64,000 nt of DNA from Minisyncoccota bacterium (GTDB lineage: Bacteria; Patescibacteriota; Minisyncoccia; Phycocordibacterales; UBA9973). Under the pieces are notes generated by a model that was not told the DNA's origin, made no database searches, and worked only from the letters and a program-made list of their open reading frames with translations. Positions 1,572-64,000 of this stretch are shown here, in pieces; the stretch's first letter is position 1, and the number at the start of each line of letters is the position of its first letter. Location of the stretch: contig JBAZYS010000001.1 in assembly GCA_041659205.1 (NCBI GenBank), positions 54,090 to 118,089 on the forward strand. The letters are read 5' to 3'. The position numbers were made by a program, and so were the translations under genes.

Positions 1572-4830
<3,259 letters not shown>

Positions 4831-18373: not shown

Positions 18374-20434
18374 ATGGCAAAAGAGAAAGCAAAAGAGGAG
18401 ACTTCAAAAGGGCATCATTATGATGCCTCTGACATTTCTGTCCTAGAGGGGCTAGAACCCGTCAGGCGCCGTCCCGGTATGTATATTGGTACAACTGGCC
18501 CTGAAGGATTACATCACCTGGTATGGGAGATTTTCGACAATTCACGTGATGAAGCGATGGGTGGTTTTTGTAATGATATTGAAATAGTCCTTCTCCCTAA
18601 TAATCGTATTCGGGTAGCAGACAATGGCCGAGGTATACCTGTAGATATTCATAAAAAGACGAAAGTTTCTGCTCTGGAAACCGTTATGACCACACTTCAC
18701 GCTGGAGGAAAATTCGGAGGAGAAGGGTATAAAGTTTCCGGAGGTCTTCATGGAGTTGGAGCATCTGTGGTAAATGCGCTCTCTATTTATTGTAAAGCAG
18801 AAGTCCATAAGGATGGTGCAAAATATGTTCAAGAATATTCTCAAGGAAAGAAAAAGTCTGCAGTTAAAAAAGTTGGTAATTCAAAACTTCACGGTACAGT
18901 TATTACTTTTGAGCCCGATGAAGCAATTTTCGGTAAAATTGTTTTTGATTTAAACACAGTAGTTAACCATATTCGTCAGCAAGCATATCTTGTAAAAGAA
19001 TTAAAAATTTTAATTATTGACGCCCGTGAGGCTGAAGGGAAAGTAGATGCAAGTGATGTATTTTATTTTAGAGAGCTTGGATTAGAACTACCTTCCGTTG
19101 CTTTTTATTTCGAGGGTGGGCTTGTTTCTCTTGTAAAATATTACAACAAATTTCAGAAACCAATTCAAAGTAATATTTTTTATGTTGAAAAAGAATTGGA
19201 TAATGTCGGCGTTGAGATAGCCTTACAATATGTAGATGATATTACCGATAGAATTTTTCCTTTTGCGAACAATATTTATACTGGAGAAGGTGGAACCCAT
19301 GTGACTGGTTTTAAAACAGCTCTTACTCGAACCCTCAATACTTACTGTAAAAAGAATGAAATGATGAAAGAGTCTGAAGGTGGATTTACGGGAGACGATG
19401 TTTTGGAAGGTTTGACTGCAGTTATTTCCGTGAAACTTCGAGAAATACAGTTTGAAGGACAGACGAAAGCAAAACTAGGAAGTATGGAAGCTCAGGGTGC
19501 TGTGGCGACAGTTTTCGGAGAAGCTTTTGCTGCTTTCTTAGAGGAAAATCCTGACGAAGCGAAAGGGATAATAAATAAATCAATCCTTGCCCTCAAGGCA
19601 CGTAAGGCAGCGAAAGCAGCAAAAGATTCTGTGCTCCGTAAGGGTGCCTTAGAAGGAATGACTCTTCCGGGTAAGCTTGCAGACTGTCAAAGTAAAAATG
19701 CTTCTGAGTCGGAGCTATTCCTCGTGGAGGGAGATTCCGCAGGAGGTTCAGCAAAACAAGGACGAGATAGGCGTACACAGGCAATACTTCCACTTCGTGG
19801 AAAAATTCTAAATGTGGAACGCGCACGTATAGATAAAATGCTTGCTTCAAAAGAAGTTAAATCTCTCATTATTGCGATGGGTACTTCTATTGGAGATACT
19901 TTTGATTTAGATAAAATGCGTTACCATAAAATAATCATTGCGACAGATGCTGACGTGGACGGTTCACATATTCGAACCTTACTCCTTACCCTTTTCTTTA
20001 GATATTTCAGACAAGTCGTTGAGGCAGGATATATTTATATTGCTCAGCCACCACTTTATAAAATAAAAAAAGGCAAAGAAATTTTTTATGCATATACCGA
20101 TGATGAAAAAGTAAAAATTATTGGTAAGAATGCTGATGCAAGTGATATAGAGGAAGTAGTAGAAGGGGAAGAGTCGCAAGAAGAGGAGACACCAGAAGAA
20201 GTGACAAAAAAATCAAACAAAATTCATATTCAACGCTTTAAAGGTCTCGGAGAAATGAACCCAGAAGAACTCTGGGAAACTACTATGGATCCACAACATC
20301 GTATATTAAAGAGAGTAGATATTTCTGATGCAGAAGAAGCTAATAAAATCTTCGATATTCTCATGGGCTCCGAAGTCCCTCCTCGTAAATCATTCATCCA
20401 ATCTAATGCAAAATTAGCAGAGATTGATATCTAA
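18374..20434 (+). CDS. gyrB: DNA gyrase / topoisomerase IV subunit B (type IIA topoisomerase ATPase subunit)
   Basis: The GHKL ATPase N-terminus is present. TOPRIM is EGDSAGGSAKQGRDRRTQAILPLRGKILNVE. The C-terminal IQRFKGLGEM motif is present. Confidence 0.9.
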   Translation: MAKEKAKEETSKGHHYDASDISVLEGLEPVRRRPGMYIGTTGPEGLHHLVWEIFDNSRDEAMGGFCNDIEIVLLPNNRIRVADNGRGIPVDIHKKTKVSALETVMTTLHAGGKFGGEGYKVSGGLHGVGASVVNALSIYCKAEVHKDGAKYVQEYSQGKKKSAVKKVGNSKLHGTVITFEPDEAIFGKIVFDLNTVVNHIRQQAYLVKELKILIIDAREAEGKVDASDVFYFRELGLELPSVAFYFEGGLVSLVKYYNKFQKPIQSNIFYVEKELDNVGVEIALQYVDDITDRIFPFANNIYTGEGGTHVTGFKTALTRTLNTYCKKNEMMKESEGGFTGDDVLEGLTAVISVKLREIQFEGQTKAKLGSMEAQGAVATVFGEAFAAFLEENPDEAKGIINKSILALKARKAAKAAKDSVLRKGALEGMTLPGKLADCQSKNASESELFLVEGDSAGGSAKQGRDRRTQAILPLRGKILNVERARIDKMLASKEVKSLIIAMGTSIGDTFDLDKMRYHKIIIATDADVDGSHIRTLLLTLFFRYFRQVVEAGYIYIAQPPLYKIKKGKEIFYAYTDDEKVKIIGKNADASDIEEVVEGEESQEEETPEEVTKKSNKIHIQRFKGLGEMNPEELWETTMDPQHRILKRVDISDAEEANKIFDILMGSEVPPRKSFIQSNAKLAEIDI

Positions 20435-31592: not shown

Positions 31593-32975
31593 ATGAAAAA
31601 TATAAAAATGTTTTTTCTTATTTTAATAGTTTTGTTTGGGATAGGGCATTCTGTTGCTTTTGCGGCAGATCCGACTATTTCCTCAATAAGTCCTACGACT
31701 GCACATGTAGGAGATACAGTTACCTTAACAGGGACAAATTTTGGTGTGAATACTATTGTTGAATTCTTTAAAAATTACACCGATGGTACAACTGGGTTTG
31801 TGGGTGTTGGTGTCCCGCTTCCAGGAAATACTTCAACTAGTTATGCACTTACTGTTCCTCCTGGGATAAAAGGCTTAGCCACTATTCGTATTAGAAATAT
31901 GTATTCAGATATTGTAAGCAATACCATTACTTTAAATGTATTACCCATAAGTCCCGTTATTGAATATGTCGGTTCAGGTGTTGCTTATCAGGTTCCACAA
32001 AACACTGCACGTCCTGATTTAACGGAGCTATTTTTACATGGTCAGAATATTGATTCTGATTCCGTTATCGTAATTGATAATCAGATAAATGTGAATTGGG
32101 TTTATTGCACTAAAAATTTTGTAAACGATACTTGTTTTTATGTACCTTCGAGTGTTAGTGCTGGGTCGCACTCAATGCATATTAAACAAAAAGATTCCGG
32201 CCTTACTAGCAATACTGTATCTTTGACTGTTATAGATAAACCAATTATTTCTTACATTTCAAAATATCTTACGGTTGGGGCGGCAATTCAAGCTTGTGGC
32301 ATAGGATTTGATTCGAAATCTGTTGCAGTCTTTGACGGGGTGACAGAAGGTGCGCTTTTGACTCCTGGGGTGACAGTTTGTGCTAATTTTAGTATTCCTG
32401 CAACATTGAGTGCTGGCTCTCATTCGTTTCAGATTAAACAAACTGATACGAATGCATTGAGTAATTTACTCACTATTACAGTTGCTGGTGCTGTCGCTGG
32501 GACACCTCCTCCTGTTGTTCCTCCAAAATCTGATCCAATAATCAAATCTCCTCCAATTACTCCTCCAGCAGAGTGTCTCGGTGGTCCCACTGCTTGGGGA
32601 TGTAATACTCCTCCCACCACCCCTCCAATCCTTGGTTGCTCCGGTGGAAACATCTTCAACACCCAAACGGGTTTACCCTGCGTAAATAATGTAGGCAATG
32701 ACAATCAGTCTCCATCAAACTTTCCTTCACAAAGTTCAGGATCTTCGACTTACGACTTCGGTGATAAAACACTCCGTAACGGAAGCAGGGGGGAAGCAGT
32801 TAGAGAATTACAAAGATATTTAAATGATAAATTAAATCTTGGTTTAGTATTAGATGGAAAACTAGGACCAAAAACAATTGCTGTAATCAAGATGTGGCAA
32901 TCTGATCATGGCTTAGTCGCTGATGGACTCATCGGTAAGATGACTAAAGCGCAGATGCTGGCGGAGGTGAATTAG
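31593..32975 (+). CDS. secreted IPT/TIG-repeat protein with C-terminal Cys-loop plus peptidoglycan-binding (PG_binding_1-like) module; paralogue 1 of 4
   Basis: Signal peptide. IPT-like repeats include ISSISPTTAHVGDTVTLTGTNFG. A Pro-rich linker follows. The C-terminus is LGCSGGNIFNTQTGLPCVNNVGNDNQ...RNGSRGEAVRELQRYLN...DGKLGPKTIAVIKMWQ...GLVADGLIGKMT. Confidence 0.75.
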   Translation: MKNIKMFFLILIVLFGIGHSVAFAADPTISSISPTTAHVGDTVTLTGTNFGVNTIVEFFKNYTDGTTGFVGVGVPLPGNTSTSYALTVPPGIKGLATIRIRNMYSDIVSNTITLNVLPISPVIEYVGSGVAYQVPQNTARPDLTELFLHGQNIDSDSVIVIDNQINVNWVYCTKNFVNDTCFYVPSSVSAGSHSMHIKQKDSGLTSNTVSLTVIDKPIISYISKYLTVGAAIQACGIGFDSKSVAVFDGVTEGALLTPGVTVCANFSIPATLSAGSHSFQIKQTDTNALSNLLTITVAGAVAGTPPPVVPPKSDPIIKSPPITPPAECLGGPTAWGCNTPPTTPPILGCSGGNIFNTQTGLPCVNNVGNDNQSPSNFPSQSSGSSTYDFGDKTLRNGSRGEAVRELQRYLNDKLNLGLVLDGKLGPKTIAVIKMWQSDHGLVADGLIGKMTKAQMLAEVN

Positions 32976-33059
32976 ATTTAAGAAACTACAAAAGCCACTC
33001 CAGGAGAGTGGTTTTTGTTTGTGATATAATATTTATATTAGTAATTAATATTAAATTTT

Positions 33060-34982
33060 ATGAAAAAGTTAAAAGTATTTCTTTTTGTGTTAGTTGTTGT
33101 ATTAGGAGGTTTCAGTTCCGCTTTTGCAGTGACTACACCTGCTCCTGTGGTAACTATTTTGCTTCAAGACCAGCATTACAAACTTGGTTCTGGAAATTAT
33201 ATACCATCAGAATGGCTCTCTACTTTGAGTGTTCCTCAAGACCAAGACCCTGGCCGTATAATGATTAAAGGGTCTGCAACAAATGCTACTAGCTGTACTT
33301 TTGTAGGAAATGATTGGTCTGAAATTAATTCTTCTTATGTTAATAAAGTAATTTCAAATTTTCCCGGTGAAGAATTTTTGGCGATGATGGTATCAAAATT
33401 TGGAGTAGCAAATGGTGGGATGTCGAAGATTGGAACATACACTTTCTCGGTTACTTGTACAGGGCCTGGGGGGACAGGAACAGATAGAGTTACGCTAAAT
33501 ATTGTACCTCCAAATCCAAACTTTCCTTCGGCAAAACTTACAGCTTCAAAATATGCGGTTAAAGATGGAGAATCTGTCACTTTATCTTGGACTTCAGCAA
33601 ATGCAAATTCATGTTCAGGTTCTGGAAGGTGGACTATCGCAGGCGGCCCACCATATAATTCAGGTGGACCATCAGGAATTCAAATTGTAGGTCCACTTTC
33701 TAGTTCTGATTCTCCTTTTGATTTTGGTATTGATTGTTGGGGGAGTGATGGACAGGGAAATACATTAGTTAGTCCACGAAGTATTATTCTTGTGACCGCT
33801 ACTTCCGATGCACCAGTTATAACAAGCATAGATACTTCTACTCCATCTATAGGAGATACTGTTATTGTGAAAGGATCAAATTTTGATTCAAACACTATGG
33901 TTATTTTTGACAATGGGGATACTAGAGCCACTCCAACAATTATTTCTTCAACTTCTCTTAGCTTCGTTGTTCCATCTCATACCGGTTCAGGATTTAGTTA
34001 TGCTTTTAATGTTGGTACTCACAAACTTCAACTTAATAACAATGGATCATTAAGTAACTCAATTTCATTTGAAGTTGTTCCAGTTTTACAAAATACTCAT
34101 CTTACTATTGTTGAACCAGGAGGGTATAGAACTTGGAAAATTGGTAGTACTCAAATATTTAAATGGAAAACAGAAAGAGTTCCAGCTACAGCTACTGGAT
34201 ATATTAGTTTTGCGAGTGCGGGATATGGTGGGGAGGCGGTAATAAATAAAAAAATTGCAGATAATATTCCTAATACAGGGAGCTTCACATGGACTTCTGT
34301 TGGTAGGGCCGCAGACGGTTCTTCTATCCCAGCAAGTATATATCCTTATGGATTTACTGTAGTTATGAATGTTCCAGATATTGGACAGAAGGTGAGTGAT
34401 TACAAGGATCGTACTATTATTTTAAGTGAAACAGCTGGAGAAGTTTCTCCAACTCCAACTCCAACTCCAGCTCCTATACCTCTTCCTGCCCAGTGTCTGG
34501 GTGGGCCTGGAGCAACGAACAATTGTCCTGTTACAACTGGTCAATTTTGTGGGGGGATAGCAGGCATTCAATGTACTACTGGATATTCTTGTAAGCTTGA
34601 TGGTTCATATCCAGACGCAGGAGGAACTTGTATAAAAAATGTTTCTCCTAATCCAGTCTTGGGCTGCTCCGGTGGAAACATTTTCAACACTCAAACGGGA
34701 TTACCCTGCGTAAATAATGTTGGAAATGATAACCAACCTTCAGGAACACCACGTTCTTATAATTTTGGTGATAAAACACTCCGAAGTGGAAGTAGAGGAG
34801 ATGCAGTTGTAGAGTTGCAAAGATTCCTGAATGATAAATTAAATCTTGGTTTAGTATTAGACGGCAAGCTTGGACCAAAAACAATTGCTGTAATCAAGAT
34901 GTGGCAAGCTGATCATGGCTTAGTCGCTGATGGACTCATTGGTAGAATGACTAAAGCACAGATGCTGGCGGAGGTGAATTAA
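33060..34982 (+). CDS. secreted surface protein with C-terminal Cys-loop plus peptidoglycan-binding module; paralogue 2 of 4
   Basis: Signal peptide, IPT-like repeats and a PTPTPTP linker. The C-terminal module DNA is about 90-95% identical to 32635-32975. Confidence 0.75.
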   Translation: MKKLKVFLFVLVVVLGGFSSAFAVTTPAPVVTILLQDQHYKLGSGNYIPSEWLSTLSVPQDQDPGRIMIKGSATNATSCTFVGNDWSEINSSYVNKVISNFPGEEFLAMMVSKFGVANGGMSKIGTYTFSVTCTGPGGTGTDRVTLNIVPPNPNFPSAKLTASKYAVKDGESVTLSWTSANANSCSGSGRWTIAGGPPYNSGGPSGIQIVGPLSSSDSPFDFGIDCWGSDGQGNTLVSPRSIILVTATSDAPVITSIDTSTPSIGDTVIVKGSNFDSNTMVIFDNGDTRATPTIISSTSLSFVVPSHTGSGFSYAFNVGTHKLQLNNNGSLSNSISFEVVPVLQNTHLTIVEPGGYRTWKIGSTQIFKWKTERVPATATGYISFASAGYGGEAVINKKIADNIPNTGSFTWTSVGRAADGSSIPASIYPYGFTVVMNVPDIGQKVSDYKDRTIILSETAGEVSPTPTPTPAPIPLPAQCLGGPGATNNCPVTTGQFCGGIAGIQCTTGYSCKLDGSYPDAGGTCIKNVSPNPVLGCSGGNIFNTQTGLPCVNNVGNDNQPSGTPRSYNFGDKTLRSGSRGDAVVELQRFLNDKLNLGLVLDGKLGPKTIAVIKMWQADHGLVADGLIGRMTKAQMLAEVN

Positions 34983-34992
34983 ATTAATATTA

Positions 34993-35023
34993 AAAAGCGC
35001 TGCCCGAAGGCGGCGCTTTTTTT
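34993..35023 (+). terminator. rho-independent terminator
   Basis: aaaagcgctgcc-cgaa-ggcggcgcttttttt. Confidence 0.65.
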
Positions 35024-35392
35024 GTGGGATGGCTCAAGCGACTAGCCTGAGAGGAGACTGAGAAAGGAGACAGCGTCCTTTCTTGGCAGAACGAGGGATG
35101 CTCATCCTGAGGTCATGAAGACGTATCCTTCGCCTGCGAGTATTGTACCGCTCCTTACCCGACTGCCTTTTCATTTGGTTTCTCCCAAAGAAAATTGTTG
35201 AGAAGGTGAACATTCCACCGCAATGGTGAAACATTCGCAAGAAGGACTTATTCACTTTTGAGTATACTCCCATTGGGATAAAAATTGCAATTGAATACAA
35301 TTTTATTAATTTAGGTTATAATTAATGTATTAGTAATAGCGCCACGCTTTAATGGACTTTGCGCGGCATAATTTCGCAAAATTAATTATTTT

Positions 35393-38206
35393 ATGAAAAA
35401 TATTAGAATGTCGTTTCTTGTTTTGTCTGTTTTGTTTGGAATAGGGTATGTGTTTACACCTATTGCGAATGCCCAAAGTGTTGATATTCTAGGTTGCGCA
35501 AACGGAAATATTTTCAACACCCAAACTGGTTTGCTTTGTAATAACAATCAAATATCTGGAACACCTTCGTCTTATGATTTCGGTACAGTGACACTTCGTA
35601 ACGGAAGTAGGGGAGAAGCGGTGAAAGAACTTCAGAGATTTCTAAATGATAAAGAAGGACTCGGTTTAGTGATAGATGGAAAGCTCGGACCAAAAACTAT
35701 TGCTGTAATAAAAAAATGGCAAGCTGATCATGGTTTAGTTGCTGATGGGCTAGTGGGCAAGATGACAAAAGCTGAAATGAATAATGAGGCTTTAGCATTG
35801 AGTACAAACAATAGCTTATCAAATACTAATGCTAATGCTAATAATACCAATACAAATAATAATAATGTCATTAATCCTTTACCGAATCCAATACCAATAG
35901 TTACAGTTGATACTACGGCAATCCCCGTTGGAACTGGAATTAATGCTACACCGAATTTAGTAAGTATTTGGGATCGCCCCTTAGATCATGTATATGATTA
36001 TAACGGTGATCGTAACTACGACATTACCAAAGATCGTGGCTATTCAACTGTAACTTTCAAAGGAGATATTACATTAAGTTCTGCTGTGAGTGGAGGATTT
36101 TTTGAAGTTTCTTCCATAAAGCTTGTGGCTCCTAGTGGTGATGCAGGGACTTGTCTTGCTACAAATTTTTCTACTAGTTTTAATGGACAGAAAGTAGACC
36201 CAAAATATTCTGGTGGGTTAGTTCCTTCTCAGAAAGTCACTTCACTTAAATGTTATTTTGATTTTAATCAAATAGTGCGAGCCTCATCTACTGGTATAAA
36301 TGGAAATAGTATTTTTTCTCTTGATTTAGTAGTTCAAAATGTCACTGCTGGTATTAATACGCGTATTCCTAAAGCTGTTACTGCTCAGGCATTTAGTGTT
36401 TCTCATGTAAAAAGTATTTGTTCTGGTACAGATACGAAGTTTCTAACTGCTGGCGGAGGTGGTATGTTCGGAGGGGCTCCTCGAGATCCATATGCTGATG
36501 AATGTTATTTAAATTCTGATGCACCAAACAGAATAGCAGTTTATGCTTTTGGTGCGAATGAAATAAAAAAAGTAACTATCAATGATCTTCCTTGTACTAA
36601 TTTTGCAGTTCATAATTCTGCATCAAGTTCCAATAGTTCAGTCTTGCTTTGTGATGCACCTGCAATACCAAAGGGTTCAAAAATTATTATTGCCGCTGAA
36701 ACTACTAGTGGATATAAGAGTTCTGCAACTTACTTAGAAGAAGCGATAACTTCAATGCATTCAAATGCATATTTAAATGTCGTAGGTAGTTATGTAGAAT
36801 ATGCCGCATCTTGGGCTAAAATTGCGCTTGACCCTACTAAAAAAACATTGACAGACCTTGCTTTAAAGTCAGGCACAGCTGATATAAATGCTACTACTTG
36901 GAATGCTTTTTCTAGATCCTTGTCTGGTTCTTATGTAGATGCGGGTACGGTTTACAGTGAGATAACTGGAAGTAAAATTCAACCAGGGGCACGTGTATAT
37001 TACGTCATGCGCTCAGGACCACTCCTCATGTATTATCCAGAGCAAAAAGATGGAGTAGCAGGACTTACTCGCCTTGGTTCAGTTATGGGGCAGAAATTAT
37101 CTGATGGTAGTTTCCGTTTACCAGACTTAGAGAGAGATATTGCAATTGCTGCCAATAATCATCATGAGCGCACTGTTGTAACTGGAGATATCACAGATAA
37201 AATTAATACAATTGATGGGATAGTTTTTAATCCTGATGGTAGTTATGGAGTGGTGAAGGATGTGTATCGCTTACATTATGTATATAAATGTAGTGCGGCA
37301 TCCTGTAGTCCTGTCGAAGATGCAGTATCAGGGACGACACTACCTTCAAACACAATTGGTATTACAACACCGAAAGCAGGATCTAGTGTTTATCGGGATC
37401 AGCTTACTCTTATTACAAGAGGTACTGGTGCCCAGCCAGCAAATGGACGTTTAGATATATATCTTGATGGAACTTTAATTCATTCAATTCCTGAAGGCGT
37501 TAGTTTTGCTAATGGTAGTTTTGGAAATATGAATACGGCTACTTTAACTCCAGGCTCCCATACAGTAAAAGTAAATTGGCTCGACTTAGATTTGACAGGA
37601 GATAAAGTAGTTGCAACTGATTCTGTCTCATTTGTGAAGAAAACATTAGATGAACTTAAGGCAGCAGTTAGTTTTACGATTAAACCTACAACAAATTTTT
37701 CTAGTCCATTCTTTTATCGTTGGTGTGACGGTAGTGGGTGGAATTTTAATGAGCCTGTTTATCTTATGCCTACACAAGACACTATAAATGTTCAATTTAA
37801 CGATGCTAACGTTGAAACTGGACTTAGTATTACTGCACAAATAAATAATAAAGATTTAGGTTCAGCCTTAGTATCAACTGAACCAGTAAAGTTAGTCACT
37901 TATCCTACGGTAATTGGAAAAAGTTCAGGAATATTAGGTAAAATTAATTTAATTATTGTAGATTCTTCCGGTAGAACAATTATGGATGCAAGTGGAAGTT
38001 CTCCATATGTCGTTACTCAAATAACACCCACTGACTGGGACCAGGCAGGTATTTCTACCGATAGTTGTGGACCAGTAAGCTATTCAACAAATCCACCTAC
38101 CCCATATCTAAACAGTAGCGGTAATGCTTGTTTTATAACACCAGCAAAAGAAATAGAATTATTTTCTAGTACAAAAACTCCTCAACAGTTTTGTGCTACA
38201 ATTTAG
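35393..38206 (+). CDS. large secreted surface protein with the Cys-loop plus peptidoglycan-binding module at the N-terminus; paralogue 3 of 4
   Basis: A signal peptide is followed directly by ILGCANGNIFNTQTGLLCNNNQ...RNGSRGEAVKELQRFLN...DGKLGPKTIAVIKKWQ. An Asn-rich low-complexity linker follows, then about 750 aa of unknown beta-rich domains. Confidence 0.75.
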   Translation: MKNIRMSFLVLSVLFGIGYVFTPIANAQSVDILGCANGNIFNTQTGLLCNNNQISGTPSSYDFGTVTLRNGSRGEAVKELQRFLNDKEGLGLVIDGKLGPKTIAVIKKWQADHGLVADGLVGKMTKAEMNNEALALSTNNSLSNTNANANNTNTNNNNVINPLPNPIPIVTVDTTAIPVGTGINATPNLVSIWDRPLDHVYDYNGDRNYDITKDRGYSTVTFKGDITLSSAVSGGFFEVSSIKLVAPSGDAGTCLATNFSTSFNGQKVDPKYSGGLVPSQKVTSLKCYFDFNQIVRASSTGINGNSIFSLDLVVQNVTAGINTRIPKAVTAQAFSVSHVKSICSGTDTKFLTAGGGGMFGGAPRDPYADECYLNSDAPNRIAVYAFGANEIKKVTINDLPCTNFAVHNSASSSNSSVLLCDAPAIPKGSKIIIAAETTSGYKSSATYLEEAITSMHSNAYLNVVGSYVEYAASWAKIALDPTKKTLTDLALKSGTADINATTWNAFSRSLSGSYVDAGTVYSEITGSKIQPGARVYYVMRSGPLLMYYPEQKDGVAGLTRLGSVMGQKLSDGSFRLPDLERDIAIAANNHHERTVVTGDITDKINTIDGIVFNPDGSYGVVKDVYRLHYVYKCSAASCSPVEDAVSGTTLPSNTIGITTPKAGSSVYRDQLTLITRGTGAQPANGRLDIYLDGTLIHSIPEGVSFANGSFGNMNTATLTPGSHTVKVNWLDLDLTGDKVVATDSVSFVKKTLDELKAAVSFTIKPTTNFSSPFFYRWCDGSGWNFNEPVYLMPTQDTINVQFNDANVETGLSITAQINNKDLGSALVSTEPVKLVTYPTVIGKSSGILGKINLIIVDSSGRTIMDASGSSPYVVTQITPTDWDQAGISTDSCGPVSYSTNPPTPYLNSSGNACFITPAKEIELFSSTKTPQQFCATI

Positions 38207-38264
38207 TATTATTAGTTAATCCCAGAAGTAGAGCGAAACCCACTTTTGGACAAGAAAATAAATT

Positions 38265-40442
38265 ATGAAAATATTTAAAGCATCGTTTCTACTTATCTTG
38301 TTTGCAGTCATTGTATTAGGTGGTTTTGGGGTGGTAAAAAGTGCCGATGCAAGTACTTTTTCTTTGTCGAGGACATCAATAAATTTGCAGTATGACCCTC
38401 AGGGAGGGAACACTAGTGCTAACAATGCCTCACAAACTATTGGTCTGACAAATACTACAGCTTCAGATGTTACATATAGTATAAATATGCAAACAGTCTC
38501 AGATCCTTTCGCTGGCAAAATTAATCTTCTCGTTAAATATAACGCGAGGTCTGCGACAACAGGGAATTGGATCGTAGCTAGTGCTACCGACCATGCAGAT
38601 ATGGTGATACCCTCCCAACAATTAATTCTTTCACCTGGGGAAACCGTTTATTTAAGTGTTTGGGGTGGAATTGGTAACACAAATCTATTGCTTTCTCCGA
38701 CGGCATTGCAACTTGTTTCAAATATTATATTTACTGGCAATTTCTCTGATTCGCCAGTAGCTATTCCTGTGATTTGGACCAAACTCCCATATATTACTCC
38801 TACACCCACTCCGACACCAACACCCTCAACAACAACACCTACTCTTTACTCTACCGAACCAAGTCCAGGAAGATTTATTCCAGGGCAAACTATAAAAGTA
38901 TACGCACTCGGCCTTCGTTCTTCTGCGATGAATTCACTTTATATTGATGGTAAAGGTTTTAATAATATGCAATCTTGGAATCCTACTGGAACAAACTCTG
39001 GTGTACCAAATTCTTATGAAACCCTTGTTGCACTTCCTCTTGATTTATCTGCAGGAGCACATATACTTCAAATGGAGACGAGCGACGTTGTAGAAAATTT
39101 TGGAAAAGTTTTAAGTAATTCTCTTCCATTAAATATATTTCGCACTCGCGCAGAGGCAGAAAATCCAGAAGACCCAACTGTCACTTATGTAAATCCAGCA
39201 TCTGCAAAGCCAGGTGATACGGTGACGGTATACGGTACAAATTTTCACAGTGATTCGTATGTGATGCTTGATCCATATTTAGATAGTTACTCTCGGGCAC
39301 AAATGGGAACCAGGGCTACTACCGTAACCCAGACACCGACTTCAATTAGCTTTATCGTTCCTACAAAAATAACAGCTGGTAGTATGTACCCACTTATTTA
39401 CAATTTACATAGAGTGACGGTATTTCCTTCAAAAAACAAACAAGCAACAACTGTTGCATACAATGGTAGTTTATTAAATCGCTATACAATACCGAACAAT
39501 GGAGGAGAATATAGTAATGGATACTTTAATATTGTAAGTGCGGTGACATCAAGTACTCCACAAGCACCAGTCATTACTTCTATTAGTTCTTCATCAATTC
39601 CACAAGGTGGCAGTGGTTCGCGAGACAATGCTCCTGCATCTGGTGCCACTGTAACGATTACTGGATCTGGATTTTCTTCAACCTCAGCTATTGTTGTTGA
39701 CGATGACTCTAACCAATATATTCCCGACGGAATGGCTGGTGTTACTTCCACGGGATTTCCAGTTGTTTCATGGACGACTACATCAATTACATTTAGGGTG
39801 CCGTCAAATATTGCAGTAGGGCAACATTCGATCCAAGTTGGTAGTTGTGGAAATCATGGCAGTCCTTGTGGTGCTTTCCTTAGTAATCCTATTTTAGTAA
39901 CTATCACACCAAGAGGCACTGCAATGGGTAGCACTCCAGGGTACGCGACTTCAAATTTTACACCTATACCTCCACTCACTTGTACCCTCCCACAAACACT
40001 TGTAAATGGCGTTTGTACAACTCCAAGTCAAACACCTCCACCTACCTGCACATTCCCAAAAACATTAGTGAATAATGTTTGTACAAATCCGACTTCAACT
40101 TCAACACCTCTCCCAATCCTAGGCTGTTCGGCAGGTAACATATTCAACACTCAAACAGGTTTACCTTGCGTAAATAATGTTGGTAATGACAACCAATCTT
40201 CAGGAACACCAGCTCCTTACAACTTCGGCACTTCTACACTTCGAAATGGGAGCAGGGGAGAAGCAGTCATGGAATTACAGAGATTTCTAAATGATAAATT
40301 AAATCTTGGTCTAGCAGTAGATGGGAAATTAGGACCACTTACAATCGCCGTTGTGAAGGAGTGGCAAACAGAGCATGGCTTGGTCGCTGATGGTCTAATT
40401 GGTAAAATGACTAAAGCACAGATGCTGGCGGAAGTTGAATAA
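38265..40442 (+). CDS. secreted surface protein with C-terminal Cys-loop plus peptidoglycan-binding module; paralogue 4 of 4
   Basis: Signal peptide, a PTPTPTPTP linker, IPT-like segments and the internal repeat TCT[LF]P[QK]TLVN[GN]VCT. The C-terminus is ILGCSAGNIFNTQTGLPCVNNVGNDNQ followed by the PG-binding motifs. Confidence 0.75.
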   Translation: MKIFKASFLLILFAVIVLGGFGVVKSADASTFSLSRTSINLQYDPQGGNTSANNASQTIGLTNTTASDVTYSINMQTVSDPFAGKINLLVKYNARSATTGNWIVASATDHADMVIPSQQLILSPGETVYLSVWGGIGNTNLLLSPTALQLVSNIIFTGNFSDSPVAIPVIWTKLPYITPTPTPTPTPSTTTPTLYSTEPSPGRFIPGQTIKVYALGLRSSAMNSLYIDGKGFNNMQSWNPTGTNSGVPNSYETLVALPLDLSAGAHILQMETSDVVENFGKVLSNSLPLNIFRTRAEAENPEDPTVTYVNPASAKPGDTVTVYGTNFHSDSYVMLDPYLDSYSRAQMGTRATTVTQTPTSISFIVPTKITAGSMYPLIYNLHRVTVFPSKNKQATTVAYNGSLLNRYTIPNNGGEYSNGYFNIVSAVTSSTPQAPVITSISSSSIPQGGSGSRDNAPASGATVTITGSGFSSTSAIVVDDDSNQYIPDGMAGVTSTGFPVVSWTTTSITFRVPSNIAVGQHSIQVGSCGNHGSPCGAFLSNPILVTITPRGTAMGSTPGYATSNFTPIPPLTCTLPQTLVNGVCTTPSQTPPPTCTFPKTLVNNVCTNPTSTSTPLPILGCSAGNIFNTQTGLPCVNNVGNDNQSSGTPAPYNFGTSTLRNGSRGEAVMELQRFLNDKLNLGLAVDGKLGPLTIAVVKEWQTEHGLVADGLIGKMTKAQMLAEVE

Positions 40443-41725: not shown

Positions 41726-41935
41726 ATGAATATCTGGGAACACAAAAGCGTAGGGGTTGGTACTGGCCCAAAAGAGCCGTGCCCCGGGAAAAGGGAGGAC
41801 TGCCACCTGCACAAGGAATCTTGGGATTTCAAGAACCGTTGGACCCCCAGGTTCAAGTTCGCCCTTTCTGCGTTGGTGGTGGTCTTTCTCGCCACATACA
41901 CGTTTTGGCCTTTCATTTCGAAGGCCTTCCGGTAG
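41726..41935 (+). CDS. candidate small membrane protein (70 aa) inside a GC-rich island
   Basis: A strong SD (gaaggagag) lies 7 nt upstream of the ATG. The peptide is MNIWEHKSVGVGTGPKEPCPGKREDCHLHK...FALSALVVVFLATYTFWPF, with a C-terminal TM helix. Its GC content is far above the genome background. It is followed by a 12-bp-stem hairpin. Confidence 0.35.
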   Translation: MNIWEHKSVGVGTGPKEPCPGKREDCHLHKESWDFKNRWTPRFKFALSALVVVFLATYTFWPFISKAFR

Positions 41936-41955
41936 ATTCTACCGGCCGCTCTATC

Positions 41956-41992
41956 ATGGCCAGCTTAACCCCCAGGGGACTAAGCTGGCCAT
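41956..41992 (+). terminator. strong hairpin (atggccagctta / taagctggccat, 12-bp stem) followed by an AT-rich tract; terminator-like
   Basis: The two arms are perfect reverse complements. The loop acccccagggga is itself palindromic. Confidence 0.45.
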
Positions 41993-42035: not shown

Positions 42036-42740
42036 ATGCGTTTCCACATAATTACAATTTTCCCAGAAATGTTTGATTCTTATTTAAAAGAGTCGATAAT
42101 TGGCCGTGCGATAAAAGACAAAAAGATTTCTATAAAATTTTATAATCCGATGAGTTTTTGTAAGCCTAAAGAGCGTGTGGACGGCAGACCATATGGAGGG
42201 GGCCCTGGAATGGTTTTAAAGCCAGAATTTTTTCTTAAAGCAATTAGTAAAGCTTTGACGCAGTGTTCTCGCTCGGGATCTCCTGCTATGCAAACTCGAC
42301 CACTCTCAAAAACACTACGCCATAGTTTAAAAGTAAAGATAATAATTTTTTCCCCATCAGGAAAAAAGTTTGATACAGCTTATGCGAAAAAATCTGCTCA
42401 AAAATATACAGATATTATTTTAATTTCAGGACGCTATGAAGGCATCGACGCTCGAGTTCAGAAAATATTAAAAGCAGAAGAGATATCAATAGGGGATTAT
42501 ATTTTGACTGGAGGAGAACTTCCAGCTATGATAATGGTCGATTCTATTTCTAGGCAAATCCCAGGGGTTTTGGGTAAATATGAGTCCCTAGAGGAAGAAC
42601 GAGTTTCCACGAGTGAAGTATATACTCGTCCAGAAGTTCTAAAATATAAGGCTAAAAACTATAGAGTCCCCAAGGTTTTGCTCTCGGGGCATAGAGCAAA
42701 GATAGATGAATGGAAGAATGGGAGGAATAAAAAAGACTAA
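42036..42740 (+). CDS. trmD: tRNA (guanine37-N1)-methyltransferase
   Basis: MRFHIITIFPEMF...GRPYGGGPGMVL...ISGRYEGIDARV. It contains an about 20-aa GC-rich insertion (TQCSRSGSPAMQTRPLSKTLRHS). Confidence 0.9.
   Translation: MRFHIITIFPEMFDSYLKESIIGRAIKDKKISIKFYNPMSFCKPKERVDGRPYGGGPGMVLKPEFFLKAISKALTQCSRSGSPAMQTRPLSKTLRHSLKVKIIIFSPSGKKFDTAYAKKSAQKYTDIILISGRYEGIDARVQKILKAEEISIGDYILTGGELPAMIMVDSISRQIPGVLGKYESLEEERVSTSEVYTRPEVLKYKAKNYRVPKVLLSGHRAKIDEWKNGRNKKD
42272..42306. repeat. GC-rich ~35-nt repeat element, copy 2 of 3, inside trmD, in a different reading frame from copies 1 and 3
   Basis: tcgggatctcctgctatgcaaactcgaccactctc aligned against ligA 3423-3457 and tgt 62161-62195. Confidence 0.7.
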
Positions 42741-60559: not shown

Positions 60560-61355
60560 AAAAATAAAAAGAAAAAAATCTTTAAACATCGCTTTGGCCG
60601 TTGTGCTTTTTGTTATTTTATTTTATTTCCGATCAGGGATTTTTGATGGATTTTCCAGTGCAACTCAAGCTATTTTTCGACCTGTATTAATTTTAGGGTC
60701 CGGTATTGGAGGAAATTTAGGTGATATTGTTTCGTACTTTATTTCCAAAGAATCAATTTACAATGACAATCAAACTTTGAAAATCCAAATAAGTGCCGAA
60801 GAGGCAAGAATGGCTAATTATGATTCAATAGTAAAGGAAAACGAAAGTTTGAAAGAAATTTTAGGAAGAAAAAAAGAAAAAGTCACAATGGTATTGTCTG
60901 CTATTTTAGCAAAACCAAACCAAAGTGCTTATGATACTTTATTGATTGATGCTGGAATAAATGAAGGGATAAAAATAGGGGACACTGTTTTTGCAAAAGG
61001 CGATGTACCAATTGGAAGGGTAGATATTGTTTATGGAAATTCTTCGAAAGTCGTATTGTTTTCAAGTGCGGAAGAAAAGACTCAAGCTTCTATTGCTGGA
61101 AAACCTGACCGCGCAGGCGGGGATACTTTTATGGAATTAGTTGGTCGAGGTGGTGGAAATTTTGAAATGATTTTACCTAGAGATTTTATTTTACAAAAAG
61201 GAGATCAAGTAGTTTTACCAGGTATTAATTCTTACTTATTAGCTGTCGCGGAAACAGTAATTTCTGACCCACGTGAACCTTTTATTAAAGCATTATTGCG
61301 TAGTCCGGTAAACGTGCAGGAGCTTAAGTTTGTACAAATAGAAATTCAGAAGTAA
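60540..61355 (+). CDS. mreC: rod shape-determining protein MreC
   Basis: N-terminal TM, a coiled coil (NQTLKIQISAEEARMANYDSIVKENESLKE), and a C-terminal beta domain with GDTVFAKGD / KGDQVVLPG. The ATG at 60540 overlaps the mreB 3' end. The ORF track's earlier TTG start is less likely. Confidence 0.75.
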   Translation: MSYLLDKKIKRKKSLNIALAVVLFVILFYFRSGIFDGFSSATQAIFRPVLILGSGIGGNLGDIVSYFISKESIYNDNQTLKIQISAEEARMANYDSIVKENESLKEILGRKKEKVTMVLSAILAKPNQSAYDTLLIDAGINEGIKIGDTVFAKGDVPIGRVDIVYGNSSKVVLFSSAEEKTQASIAGKPDRAGGDTFMELVGRGGGNFEMILPRDFILQKGDQVVLPGINSYLLAVAETVISDPREPFIKALLRSPVNVQELKFVQIEIQK

Positions 61356-61495
61356 TTATTAAAATGCACACATAAAATTCTGTTGAATTTTTGCTCTGCT
61401 CGTCGCTCAAGAAAATAATAAATAGAATACTATTTTTATTTTCTAAGCTCCTGCGCAAGGCATTTAAATAACTACTTCTGAATTTTCTATAAATT

Positions 61496-63010
61496 ATGGA
61501 ATTTAAAATTGAGAAAAAATTAAAAAATAGTTTAGGGCGAGTGGGGGTATTGAGTACTCCGCATGGAGATATTTTGACTCCGGCTTTTGTTGCTGTGGGG
61601 ACAAAAGCAACCATAAAGTCTTTGAATCCTGAGCAGGTGCGTGACGCTGGCACACAAGTTGTGCTTGGTAATACTTATCATTTATATTTACAACCAGGCG
61701 ATGAGATAGTACACGATGCAGGAGGCATCGGTAAATTTATGAATTGGCGGCGAAGCGATGGCGGTATTGCGCCCACTATGACGGATAGTGGAGGCTTTCA
61801 AGTTTTTTCGCTTGGTGTTGCTTATGGAAAAGATATATCAAAGATTACAAAAATTACTGATCCATCGCTTCTAATTCCTGAACGCTTTGATGACAGCGAT
61901 GCCCCTCGTTTGGCCAAAATTGGGCAGGACGGTGTTTCTTTCAAATCACATTTGGATGGTTCTATTCATTACATCACCCCTGAAAAATCAATCCAAATTC
62001 AACATAATTTAGGTGCAGATATAATTTTTGCTTTTGATGAATGTACAAGTCCGACAGAAGATTTGAAATATCAAGGAGAAGCACTTGAGCGGACACATAG
62101 GTGGGCGGAAAGGAGTTTAGCTGAACATCAAAAATTATTAATTCAGAAACAGAAGCATTCTCAGGATCTCCTGCTTCGCAACGTCGACCGTTCGCCTGCT
62201 TCTATTTCTGATACAAAAACAGAAGAATATTTTTTAGAGGGTCTCTCGCAGAGCGACGGCTCGAGAGTGAGCGCTCTGCCAGCAGACAGAGACAGCGACC
62301 CTATAAACAATGATTCTTCTGTTTTTACTCCAGCTTTATTTGGCATTGTGCAGGGCGGGAGAGAAGAATCTTTACGTAAACAATCTGCAAAAATTATTTC
62401 AGAAATAAATGTTGATGGAAAATATTTTGACGGTTTTGGTATTGGGGGGTCTTTTGCGAAGGAAGATATGTCTACAGCGGTGAGGTGGGTTAATGAAATT
62501 CTGCCAGAAGAAAAACCACGGCACTTGCTCGGCATTGGAGAGCCAGAGGATTTATTTATGGGAATAGAAAATGGAGTGGATCTTTTTGATTGTGTTTTAC
62601 CGACACGGCTTGGAAGGAATGGAACTATTTATACTAAAAAAGGAAAAATAATAATTACCAATGCAAAATTCAGAAATGACTTTGGTCCCATCGAAGATGA
62701 TTGCGGATGTTATGTGTGTTCTGCACCAGAAGCTTTTTTTTCGGGGTCGCTGTCTGTGTCTGCTGACACAGCGCTGCCTTTCGGCTCGTCAGTCTGCGAG
62801 ACACCCCACAAAAAAACTTCTGGTGCCTCACGATATTCCCGCGCATACATCGCTCACCTTTTTCATGGTAAAGAAATGCTGGCGGGAACATTAGCATCAA
62901 TTCACAACCTCCATTTCATCGTAAATTTAGTTAAAAAGATTCGGCAATCTATTATAGAAGATAATTTCTTCGAATTTAAAGAGGAATTCTTGACGGGATA
63001 TTTGAAGTAA
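61496..63010 (+). CDS. tgt: queuine tRNA-ribosyltransferase with two large GC-rich in-frame insertions
   Basis: VLGNTYHLYLQPG, IFAFDECTSP, FGIVQGG and LLGIGEPEDL are present. The Zn site is CGCYVC...RYSRAYIAHLFH. At 504 aa it is well above the about 375-aa size I expect for Tgt. Confidence 0.88.
   Translation: MEFKIEKKLKNSLGRVGVLSTPHGDILTPAFVAVGTKATIKSLNPEQVRDAGTQVVLGNTYHLYLQPGDEIVHDAGGIGKFMNWRRSDGGIAPTMTDSGGFQVFSLGVAYGKDISKITKITDPSLLIPERFDDSDAPRLAKIGQDGVSFKSHLDGSIHYITPEKSIQIQHNLGADIIFAFDECTSPTEDLKYQGEALERTHRWAERSLAEHQKLLIQKQKHSQDLLLRNVDRSPASISDTKTEEYFLEGLSQSDGSRVSALPADRDSDPINNDSSVFTPALFGIVQGGREESLRKQSAKIISEINVDGKYFDGFGIGGSFAKEDMSTAVRWVNEILPEEKPRHLLGIGEPEDLFMGIENGVDLFDCVLPTRLGRNGTIYTKKGKIIITNAKFRNDFGPIEDDCGCYVCSAPEAFFSGSLSVSADTALPFGSSVCETPHKKTSGASRYSRAYIAHLFHGKEMLAGTLASIHNLHFIVNLVKKIRQSIIEDNFFEFKEEFLTGYLK
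62161..62195. repeat. GC-rich ~35-nt repeat element, copy 3 of 3, the 5' part of an about 175-nt insertion in tgt
   Basis: tcaggatctcctgcttcgcaacgtcgaccgttcgc. Its translation [12 protein letters not shown] parallels [12 protein letters not shown] in ligA. Confidence 0.8.
62721..62828. repeat. second GC-rich in-frame insertion in tgt, about 108 nt, containing the hairpin ctgtgtc-tgctga-cacag
   Basis: It lies between the CGCYVC and RYSRAY zinc-site elements and encodes SAPEAFFSGSLSVSADTALPFGSSVCETPHKKTSGAS. Confidence 0.65.
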
Positions 63011-63102
63011 ATTTGGGGTACTTCAATTGGGGGATTGTGTTATTTTTTGATATAATTAATAAAATTAAGGATATTATTAATTATTATTTTTTAACGAAAT
63101 AA

Positions 63103-64000
63103 ATGAAAAATATACACAAAATAGGGCATGCCTCAATACAATTCATTATTGGAGTTTTTGCGATAATTCTCGTAGGTATGAGTGGTATTTTTTTATATGG
63201 TAAATTTATTCAAGCGTCCCCTTTTAATTTTGTTCAGTCTTCATGGTCAGGTGGTATTACGGGAAATACAGCAGTTCATCCAACTAATCAAACTGGTTGG
63301 ACAGAGTACGATCAAAATTCTAGTGTCACAGCTGGAGCCACCATTACCCTTCCTTCAGTTGCGAAAACTTTTACAGATGATGGCACAATAATTATTCCTG
63401 GGGGGATAACACCGACTGGTGGAGGATTTTCGAATGGAACGCTTACAGATACGACTATGTCAGGCACACTTGTGAATGCAAAAATAAAACTTACACCGAC
63501 ATATCTTGTTGGTTCTAAAACAGATTTCCCTTTTTCTTTTTTGGATAATAGTGTTGTTTTTGACAGTGTTACTAATTCTGCGTGGGTCGCTTATAAGCCC
63601 TGTACCCCTTGTGGGGGAGTTAGTAAAGTGGATGTTACTACTGGTGGTAAAACTGATTATAGTTTTGGTTTTGGTAATGGTGTAGGTGGTCTTGCTTTTG
63701 ATAATGTTACGAATTCAATTTGGGCAACTAAACCTTCTAGCAATACAATAAAAAAAGTAAATATAACAGACGGTAGTATTGTGGGTACTTATACGGTTGG
63801 TAATGGACCACGTGGTGTTGCTTTTGATAATATTACTAACTCTGTATGGGTTGTAAATAGTACTGATGTCACCGTCAGTAAAGTAGATGTTACTACTGGG
63901 AGTATTACTGGTACTTATGCAGTAGGTAGTTCTATATCAGATATTGTTTTTGATAGCGTCACGCATTCAGTTTGGGTGACAAATTATGATTCTATTTCTG
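63103..64000 (+). CDS. 5' part of a membrane-anchored YVTN-family beta-propeller repeat protein (3' end outside window)
   Basis: The frame is open from the ATG at 63103 to the window end. N-terminal TM. The motif [AV]FD.[VI]TNS.WV.N...V.KV[DN]VTTG recurs about every 40 aa. Confidence 0.6.
   Translation, partial: MKNIHKIGHASIQFIIGVFAIILVGMSGIFLYGKFIQASPFNFVQSSWSGGITGNTAVHPTNQTGWTEYDQNSSVTAGATITLPSVAKTFTDDGTIIIPGGITPTGGGFSNGTLTDTTMSGTLVNAKIKLTPTYLVGSKTDFPFSFLDNSVVFDSVTNSAWVAYKPCTPCGGVSKVDVTTGGKTDYSFGFGNGVGGLAFDNVTNSIWATKPSSNTIKKVNITDGSIVGTYTVGNGPRGVAFDNITNSVWVVNSTDVTVSKVDVTTGSITGTYAVGSSISDIVFDSVTHSVWVTNYDSIS

Follow-up and report, generated by a model that had tools for sequence, protein, structure and literature searches.

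In-frame palindromic repeats in the tgt gene of a Patescibacteria genome, probably tolerated as surface loops of a functional enzyme

The stretch analysed here, called the window, comprises 64,000 nucleotides (64 kb) of a Minisyncoccota bacterium (contig JBAZYS010000001.1), a member of the Patescibacteria or candidate phyla radiation (CPR). Near its distal end lies the tgt gene (61496–63010, plus strand), which encodes a queuine/preQ1 tRNA-ribosyltransferase (Tgt) of 504 amino acids and is interrupted in frame by GC-rich palindromic repeats. The protein gives a full-length match to the Pfam family TGT (PF01702, E = 9e-123), and in a search of the PDB it matches the TGT of Zymomonas mobilis (Z. 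mobilis) with an E-value of about 1e-83, in four collinear blocks (query residues 11–107, 139–208, 278–409 and 446–502). The catalytic aspartates D97, D181 and D365 and the zinc ligands are all aligned and conserved. Every one of its 120 best homologues, all of them Paceibacterota, Nomurabacteria or Parcubacteria proteins, is shorter (399–480 residues), and the Tgt proteins P0012, P0015, P0038, P0051 and P0104, with about 90% core identity to the window protein, contain neither insert. The two GC-rich in-frame insertions claimed in a preliminary description of this sequence are thus real, and segments of equal length, which orthologues might have been expected to carry if they were not insertions, are missing from these five aligned relatives. 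Residues 108–138 are a further, AT-rich extra segment of 31 amino acids, which is not a repeat; since it is invariant in all close relatives aligned, it is, judged from the alignment, a lineage trait.

Insertion 1 corresponds to residues 209–277 and adds about 58 residues with respect to Z. mobilis TGT, or 54 codons with respect to the closest insert-free relatives. Insertion 2 contains exactly 36 codons (residues 410–445, between S409 and R446) and coincides with an exact gap in the PDB alignment, between Q324 and K325 of Z. mobilis TGT. The coordinates and sizes first given for both were essentially right, with insertion 2 now placed at 62723–62830. The inserts have a GC content of 54–57%, compared to 35.8% for the window, and the hairpins previously seen in them are borne out by their folding, which is far better than that of shuffled sequences (z-scores of −5.4 to −6.1). 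When the window is compared with itself, 62224–62317 and 62728–62821 emerge as inverted copies, 94 nt long and 76% complementary (blastn, E = 1e-13). Insertion 1 does start with a repeat followed by palindromes, as had been noted, but it is not a single insertion; it is made up of two distinct repeats, element A in its 5' part and element B in its 3' part. Insertion 2 is again element B, in reverse orientation to the 3' part of insertion 1. The preliminary description contained neither this relation between the inserts nor the widespread, multi-gene repeat family to which they belong, and it also lacked residues 108–138 and a small third insert in tgt, discussed below.

Element A (62146–62208, plus strand) forms a small hairpin with CAGAAGC/GCTTCT outer arms. 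The first copy of element B (62215–62326, plus strand, here the "+" orientation of the element) is read in frame F2 and encodes KTEEYFLEGLSQSDGSRVSALPADRDSDPINNDSSVF. It has inverted arms at 62215–62235 and 62306–62326, folds with an energy of −44.8 kcal/mol (z −6.1) and is matched by a covariance model of the element at 62226–62315, with 89.9 bits (E = 3e-23). The second copy (62723–62830, minus strand, "−" orientation) is read in frame R0 and encodes APEAFFSGSLSVSADTALPFGSSVCETPHKKTSGAS; its inverted arms are located at 62723–62745 and 62804–62826, and the covariance model matches it at 62730–62819 on the minus strand with 89.4 bits. Tryptic peptides predicted from the insert sequence include GLSQSDGSR and ALPFGSSVCETPHK.

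Directly upstream of insertion 2 are the zinc-site cysteines, C403-x-C405-x2-C408 (62702–62719, plus strand), equivalent to C318, C320 and C323 of Z. mobilis TGT. The predicted fourth zinc ligand is H470 (62903–62905, plus strand), within the sequence SIHNLHF. It is equivalent to H349 of Z. mobilis, which we take to be a zinc ligand, and is invariant in the alignment of close relatives and nearly invariant in a second Tgt alignment. The spacing from the third cysteine to the histidine is 62 residues, versus 26 in Z. mobilis TGT. The zinc site had been described as split, and its spacing is indeed longer by 36 residues; the histidine, however, is H470 and not the one in RYSRAYIAHLFH (AHLFH) that had been proposed. 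Insertion 2 ends two residues before Y447, which together with Y451 and H454 is invariant among the close relatives aligned. These three residues correspond to W326, Y330 and H333 of Z. mobilis, the aromatic cluster of the TGT homodimer interface (bioRxiv 10.1101/2020.09.01.277731). An AlphaFold model of Tgt with the inserts in place, calculated with a deep alignment of 111 sequences, has a mean predicted local distance difference test score (pLDDT) of 86.3 and a predicted template modelling score of 0.85, with low confidence only at residues 113–133, around 231–272 and 410–445. Its target-normalised template modelling score against Z. mobilis TGT is 0.92–0.93. In the model the TGT fold is retained; the inserts leave its confident core as loops of low pLDDT, at predicted fold-compatible surface positions.

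Element B is a widespread GC-rich, hairpin-forming repeat family of the Patescibacteria. Its core pattern was derived from eight tgt copies, and an exact-pattern scan with the 30-nt degenerate sequence CTCGCAGNNNGACGNNNCGARAGNNAGCGC, covering one genome per species for 185,579 species, returned at least 119 stretches with the core, where about 0.03 would be expected by chance (calculated). Among the matches listed, all named records are metagenome-assembled genomes of Patescibacteria, with labels of Nomura-, Kaiser- and Liptonbacteria, Paceibacterota and Minisyncoccia, and Saccharibacteria-labelled bins; there were no matches in viral contigs. The unit is palindromic, 104–112 nt long, and folds with a z-score of about −6. 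Its core of about 65 nt reads GGGGTGTCTCGCAG-GCYGACGRGC-CGAGAGGCAGCGCT-(7-bp stem with AGCA loop)-AGACAGCGACCCC and is surrounded by an outer stem of 15–25 bp, the sequence of which is site-specific yet still complementary. The resulting fold is Y-shaped, with the outer stem (P1) and two hairpins (P2 and P3).

In an alignment of 118 copies, 95.3% of the cells of the Y-structure are paired, compared to 72.4% after shuffling (none of 500 shuffles was as high), with 830 double-sided changes against 229 and a covariation score of 0.567 against 0.150. When the partners are slid by one to three columns as a control, about 40% are paired. Positions set by the search pattern are uninformative for covariation; the covarying positions outside the pattern are the pair 19-45 (GC in 77 copies, CG in 41), the whole of P1, and three pairs in P2 and five in P3. 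The two hairpins are about 99% paired and almost purely Watson-Crick, with scarcely any G-U pairs, so that either strand of the element is able to fold. In the outer stem, G.T pairs outnumber A.C pairs on the same element strand (72 versus 29), regardless of the orientation of the host gene. The core is near-identical across lineages in which the GC content of the element ranges from about 50% to more than 70%.

The covariance model built from the element B alignment finds exactly two copies in the window, both in tgt, the next match scoring 10.8 bits; in the collected CPR loci it also recovers a few decayed copies, with 38–60 bits. Rfam 15 gave no relevant match with E ≤ 1 in 61200–63100, none at the gathering score in the window and none in eight of the loci. 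A hammerhead-like core (CUGAnGA in GCTGACGAG) was considered and rejected: the covariation supports a hairpin of the form GGCY[GACG]RGCC, the motif is not followed by a GAAA element, and there is no match in Rfam. No description of element B was found in the literature on repeats of Patescibacteria, CPR or Parcubacteria as far as it is searchable in full text, subscription-only papers being out of reach.

About two thirds of the copies (85 of 130) lie inside open frames of at least 600 nt. These intragenic copies are all stop-free, their length is a multiple of three, and 73 of the 85 are read in two of the six possible frames, F2 (39 copies) and R0 (34 copies). The two frames are mirror images about the centre of the palindrome, as checked on the window coordinates, and both yield small, polar peptides rich in Gly, Ser, Pro and Asp (...GVSQADEPRGSA...DSDP... 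for F2 and ...GSLS...ALPLGSSACETP... for R0). Frame R2, which would give an Arg/Cys-rich peptide, is stop-free in 84% of the copies yet serves as the reading frame in just 3 of 85, so that the peptide, and not only stop codons, is reflected in the choice of frame. The frame bias fits translated inserts with selection on the peptide, and would not be expected if the inserts were cut from the RNA. The open reading frames (ORFs) spanning the element encode UvrD-like helicases (19–22), TGT (12–20) and TsaD (8), with RecG, peptide deformylase (Def), aminoacyl-tRNA synthetases, UvrB, MetK and others as further hosts. Counted by host family (31 families), F2 occurs in 12, R0 in 11 and every other frame in two to four, while the three largest families contain the element in both orientations.

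The remaining third of the copies is apparently intergenic, and several of these end 10–15 nt upstream of a start codon. Three intergenic copies (L079 1630–1719, L045 526–615 and L037 1916–2005) fall within a potential ORF of some 50 codons (MTRSDLIQLKR...VSQADEPRGSA...DSDGKN...), the stop codon of which overlaps the start codon of the next gene. This next gene varies between loci, being that of ribosomal protein S8 at L079. The small ORF is common to only a few copies, most of the intergenic ones having flanking stops, and may represent either a real small gene or a structure in the 5' untranslated region.

Among relatives, tgt is a recurrent site of insertion. In a DNA alignment of tgt from six related contigs, L002 carries an empty allele, L001 has element A alone at the site of insertion 1 (site 1), and alleles of the L005 type have element B alone at that site. 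L004 contains element B at both sites, in opposite orientation, while L003 has a third palindrome at site 1 and a forward element B at the site of insertion 2 (site 2). At the protein level, the 120 homologues divide at site 1 into about 20 that are empty, 26 with element B in minus and 12 in plus orientation, one with element A, 42 with other recurrent types and 19 that could not be scored. Site 1 is therefore filled in about 80% of the roughly 100 scorable relatives, with at least six insert types, the others including LLLSHGSHSNLNVVNE..., SNFSxLxPSPS..., PLEEYPxGEVD...ATPQEGN and RSDLKG.... These other types number at least five and were observed in P0003, P0005, P0006, P0021, P0037, P0100–P0102 and others, for example LLLSHGSHSNLNVVNESNIAYAEESTT, SNFSxLxPSPS and PLEEYPKGEVD...ATPQEGN, and the site 1 insert of L006 (3400–3480), inspected as DNA, is an inverted repeat too. 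Site 2 is filled in only 5 of the 120 homologues. Variation is also seen at the amino-terminus and in the FMNW|PT loop. No clean target-site duplication was found in the filled and empty tgt sites compared; the outer arms are inverted repeats and site-specific. Inversion in place was rejected as the origin of the two orientations at site 1; judging from the sequences, independent insertion is more likely, because the outer arms of the plus and minus alleles differ.

Two further features lie in or beside the gene. A GC-rich mini-insert (61748–61771, plus strand, Tgt residues 85–92) replaces SG by RRSDGGIA, a net gain of 18 nt, giving W-RRSDGGIA-P. It is present in only about 7 of the 120 homologues, and blast matches of 28–45 nt occur in the tgt genes of L001, L010 and L003, the matching DNA in L001 and L010 being near-identical to that of the window. 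At the junction of mreC and tgt, element D (61346–61481) is an AT-rich palindrome of about 140 nt, Y-shaped, which provides the final codons and the stop codon of mreC. It folds with −43.7 kcal/mol (z −8.0) and, in an alignment of the junction, is absent from L001, L002 and L005. Its ends (CAGAAG...CTTCTG) are similar to those that elements A and B have in the same genome.

Element A is a GC-rich repeat of 35–43 nt with three copies in the window, for which fold z-scores of −2.4 and −3.2 were obtained. One copy lies in ligA (3410–3457, plus strand), in frame and in a gap relative to E. coli LigA; its segment 3422–3457 is 94% identical to the tgt copy (blastn). Another is located in trmD (42272–42314, plus strand), where it is read in a different frame (SRSGSPAMQTRPLS) and fills a gap of about 19 residues relative to H. 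influenzae TrmD. That its copies are read in different frames shows element A to be a repeat of the DNA rather than a protein domain. A comparison with 893 kb of CPR loci recovered it from the window and the closest relative (L001) only. The ligA gene contains another palindrome, at 4021–4088: an 81-nt hairpin (z −6.6) encodes an 18-residue insert that separates one Cys pair of the LigA Cys4 zinc finger from the other. Palindrome-encoded inserts thus split two zinc sites in the window.

The rates of change of the inserts and the host gene were compared through dN/dS ratios (nonsynonymous to synonymous substitutions), calculated by the Nei-Gojobori method on tgt pairs. The tgt core has a dN/dS of 0.03–0.07 in all pairs, including two insert-bearing alleles, so strong purifying selection has persisted with the inserts in place. 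Its dS is 1.0–2.5, with one pair at 4.0, near saturation. For the insert columns dN/dS is 0.4–1.8. In three pairs sharing element type, orientation and site, the insert dS is 0.14–0.18, where the core dS is 1.0–2.0; the nucleotides of the insert thus change 7–14 times more slowly than the synonymous sites of the surrounding tgt. The insert peptide is nearly unconstrained, while the nucleotide sequence of the insert is constrained. At site 2, four of the seven base pairs of P3 differ between the window and L004, all four by paired double changes, which could be due to selection on structure or to gene conversion between copies.

We consider it about 75% probable that the inserts are translated palindromic repeats, tolerated in surface loops of a functional Tgt and not removed. 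GC-rich, hairpin-forming DNA repeats would have colonised protein-coding genes of Patescibacteria, both tgt inserts being copies, and transcription and translation of the intragenic copies along with their host would give flexible loops on the surface of the protein. In Tgt, loop 1 would follow the helix after the catalytic barrel, while loop 2 would belong to the zinc subdomain and end two residues ahead of the dimer-interface helix, with the enzyme presumably functional with both in place. Insertion events may land everywhere, with selection retaining the in-frame, tolerable copies at permissive sites. A decaying selfish insert would not be expected to conserve its sequence and pairing in place as element B does, which points to a structure, of DNA or RNA, that is still under selection or subject to gene conversion. 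Several points weigh against this reading. That the inserts are translated is read from the frame bias. Many of the UvrD-like, Tgt and TsaD copies are orthologous, so copy counts overstate the number of independent events, for which the count per family is a rough correction. The copies were gathered by a conserved core pattern; conservation of the core is in part built in and decayed copies are under-sampled. The low insert dS could possibly stem from gene conversion or recent replacement rather than selection. Neither a target-site duplication nor a transposase or donor copy was identified (the neighbours of the loci were not screened for transposases), and the mobility of element B is thus read only from its patchy distribution. 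Finally, insertion 2 adjoins Y447, Y451 and H454 and may affect Tgt activity.

The preliminary description had left it undecided whether the inserts are tolerated or removed. The frame bias and the low dN/dS of the gene favour tolerance and translation, and removal before or during translation, be it by RNase III-like cleavage and religation, intron-like splicing or ribosomal bypassing, appears highly improbable. Each insert does form a very stable hairpin with an outer stem that brings its two junctions together, what is conserved is the structure and not the peptide, and CPR genomes are known for intervening sequences in their rRNA genes. Excision from the RNA, however, would not constrain frame, length or stop codons, whereas the copies are stop-free and in frame, concentrated in two frames and avoiding the equally open R2. 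Rfam contains no intron or ribozyme matching them, and the tgt sequence has no stop and no pair of take-off and landing codons as at bypass sites. The element is also present in both orientations with respect to the mRNA, so that the transcripts carry different strands. Even less credible is that tgt is a decaying pseudogene, or the inserts assembly artefacts, in an organism using another tgt or none. Five separate insertions in or beside one gene, one of them in a metal site next to the dimer interface, might suggest this, but the reading frame is intact, the core is under purifying selection and the catalytic and zinc residues are all conserved; the same insertions are present in independent assemblies from NCBI, ENA, JGI and Logan. 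An intact second copy of tgt, which had been raised together with the pseudogene, does not exist within the window.

A rather unlikely but more substantial alternative to tolerated passengers is that element B is a functional module selected by the host, a structured DNA or RNA signal placed in essential genes. It could, for instance, be bound or processed by a CPR-specific factor, or act on translation pausing or mRNA stability. The slow synonymous change of the insert relative to its flanking gene would fit this, as would the nearly complete pairing of P2 and P3 with its many double changes and almost no G-U, the paired double changes between copies at the same site, the near-identity of the core over a wide range of GC content, the strand preference of the G.T pairs and the intergenic copies just upstream of start codons. 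The distribution of the element speaks against it, however: its presence is uneven even in close relatives, and these get along well in its absence, its copy number is low (two in 64 kb), its host genes are unrelated and one and the same site may hold it in either orientation. Constraint could also be mimicked by gene conversion among copies or by recent spread, and the sample is biased towards intact cores. With the same reserve, element B might be regarded as a structured module that the whole superphylum has conserved and that selection keeps in essential coding sequences, a candidate recognition site for a CPR-specific factor that would also be translated as a harmless loop; elements A and D, of similar Y shape, could perhaps be included.

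Translated palindromic repeats are best known from Rickettsia, where the original study of the Rickettsia palindromic elements (RPEs) is reportedly that of Ogata et al. (2000). RPE-1 to RPE-10 are repeats of about 100–150 bp, in several families, located in frame in unrelated genes and encoding a conserved peptide (PMC10969869). Like them, the repeats described here lie between genes as well as in frame in unrelated housekeeping genes, at fold-compatible positions (as modelled for Tgt) and with a recurrent peptide; both systems comprise several families per genome, can strike one gene twice and favour genes for DNA repair. Unlike the RPEs, the present elements are hosted by Patescibacteria and are used in both orientations and two mirror-image frames. 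The likeness is drawn from the descriptions of the two systems. Element B further differs in its Y-shaped three-helix architecture with copy-specific outer stems, in its constraint in place at the nucleotide level, and in a core that is near-identical across several candidate phyla of a superphylum, while the RPEs belong to one genus.

Repetitive extragenic palindromes (REPs) of the GTAG and CGTC super-families are sometimes wholly within ORFs, where they encode 20–80 amino acids (Di Nocera et al. 2013, PMC3733652). [quoted passage not shown] In general REPs are 20–40 bp long, with an unpaired terminal GTAG or CGTC tag, mostly extragenic and often of high copy number; REPINs are mobilised by RAYT (Y1) transposases, while the CGTC type has 8–9-bp stems, 4–5-nt loops and no known transposase (PMC3733652). 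The bias towards repair genes is shared: UvrD-like proteins are the commonest hosts of element B, RecG and UvrB are also hosts, and LigA carries element A. Element B is unlike a REP in its longer, Y-shaped unit, with GACG/CGTC only as a hairpin loop and not as a terminal tag, and in its low copy number, with both window copies, and about two thirds of those sampled, being intragenic. With miniature inverted-repeat transposable elements it shares a short, non-autonomous-looking unit, inverted-repeat ends and patchiness among close relatives. Those elements have conserved terminal inverted repeats and a variable interior, the reverse of element B, with its conserved interior and site-specific outer arms, for which neither a target-site duplication nor a parent insertion sequence was found. 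Bypass elements (T4 gene 60 and the mitochondrial byps of Magnusiomyces) and inteins are likewise extra sequences in essential genes; unlike the former, the inserts have no in-frame stop and no matched take-off and landing codons, and their frame usage is that of ordinary translation, while unlike the latter they contain no intein motifs, Pfam finding only TGT in the window protein.

Some other features of the window were observed. Near the 3' end of an ORF on the minus strand (20895–22670, 591 residues), a GC-rich patch at 20936–21024 contains the perfect palindrome CCTGCCTGCGCAGGCAGG. It has matches of 19–20 nt in L081 and L117 and may be part of a further repeat family; it does not fold significantly (z −1.6). 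Between ORFs, 41734–41991 is GC-rich (56–59%), with an 18-bp hairpin at 41956–41992 and no Rfam match at the gathering score, and may be a structured RNA outside the Rfam library. The region 32646–40412 contains a 300-nt segment in four diverged copies (61–78% identity) together with similar, signal-peptide-like gene starts, which point to a group of adjacent paralogues encoding secreted or surface proteins. In the gene downstream of tgt, 63533–63976 contains a repeated unit of about 126 nt (...FDNVTNSIWV...), as is usual in beta-propeller-like repeat proteins. An inverted repeat in GyrB (19519–19630) was discarded as a repeat element, as it looks like ordinary conserved coding sequence.

Repeats that are translated within essential genes, so far best known from Rickettsia, would by these results also be a feature of the Patescibacteria, a large radiation of which most members are uncultivated. 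The inserts offer a concrete explanation of the variable lengths of CPR housekeeping proteins, Tgt ranging from 399 to 504 residues at about 90% core identity, and such insert-driven variation affects orthology calls, structure prediction and genome annotation in the CPR; the covariance model of element B can be used to annotate and mask the inserts. They also suggest that a Cys3-His zinc site beside a dimer interface can accept a loop of 36 residues. Its strong covariation and low synonymous divergence within coding sequence recommend element B as a tractable candidate, in these very small genomes, for a structured motif of DNA or RNA, or for a mechanism of mobilisation, that would be new. 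Were it to be a functional module, it would be a dual-coding element of a kind undescribed in bacteria.

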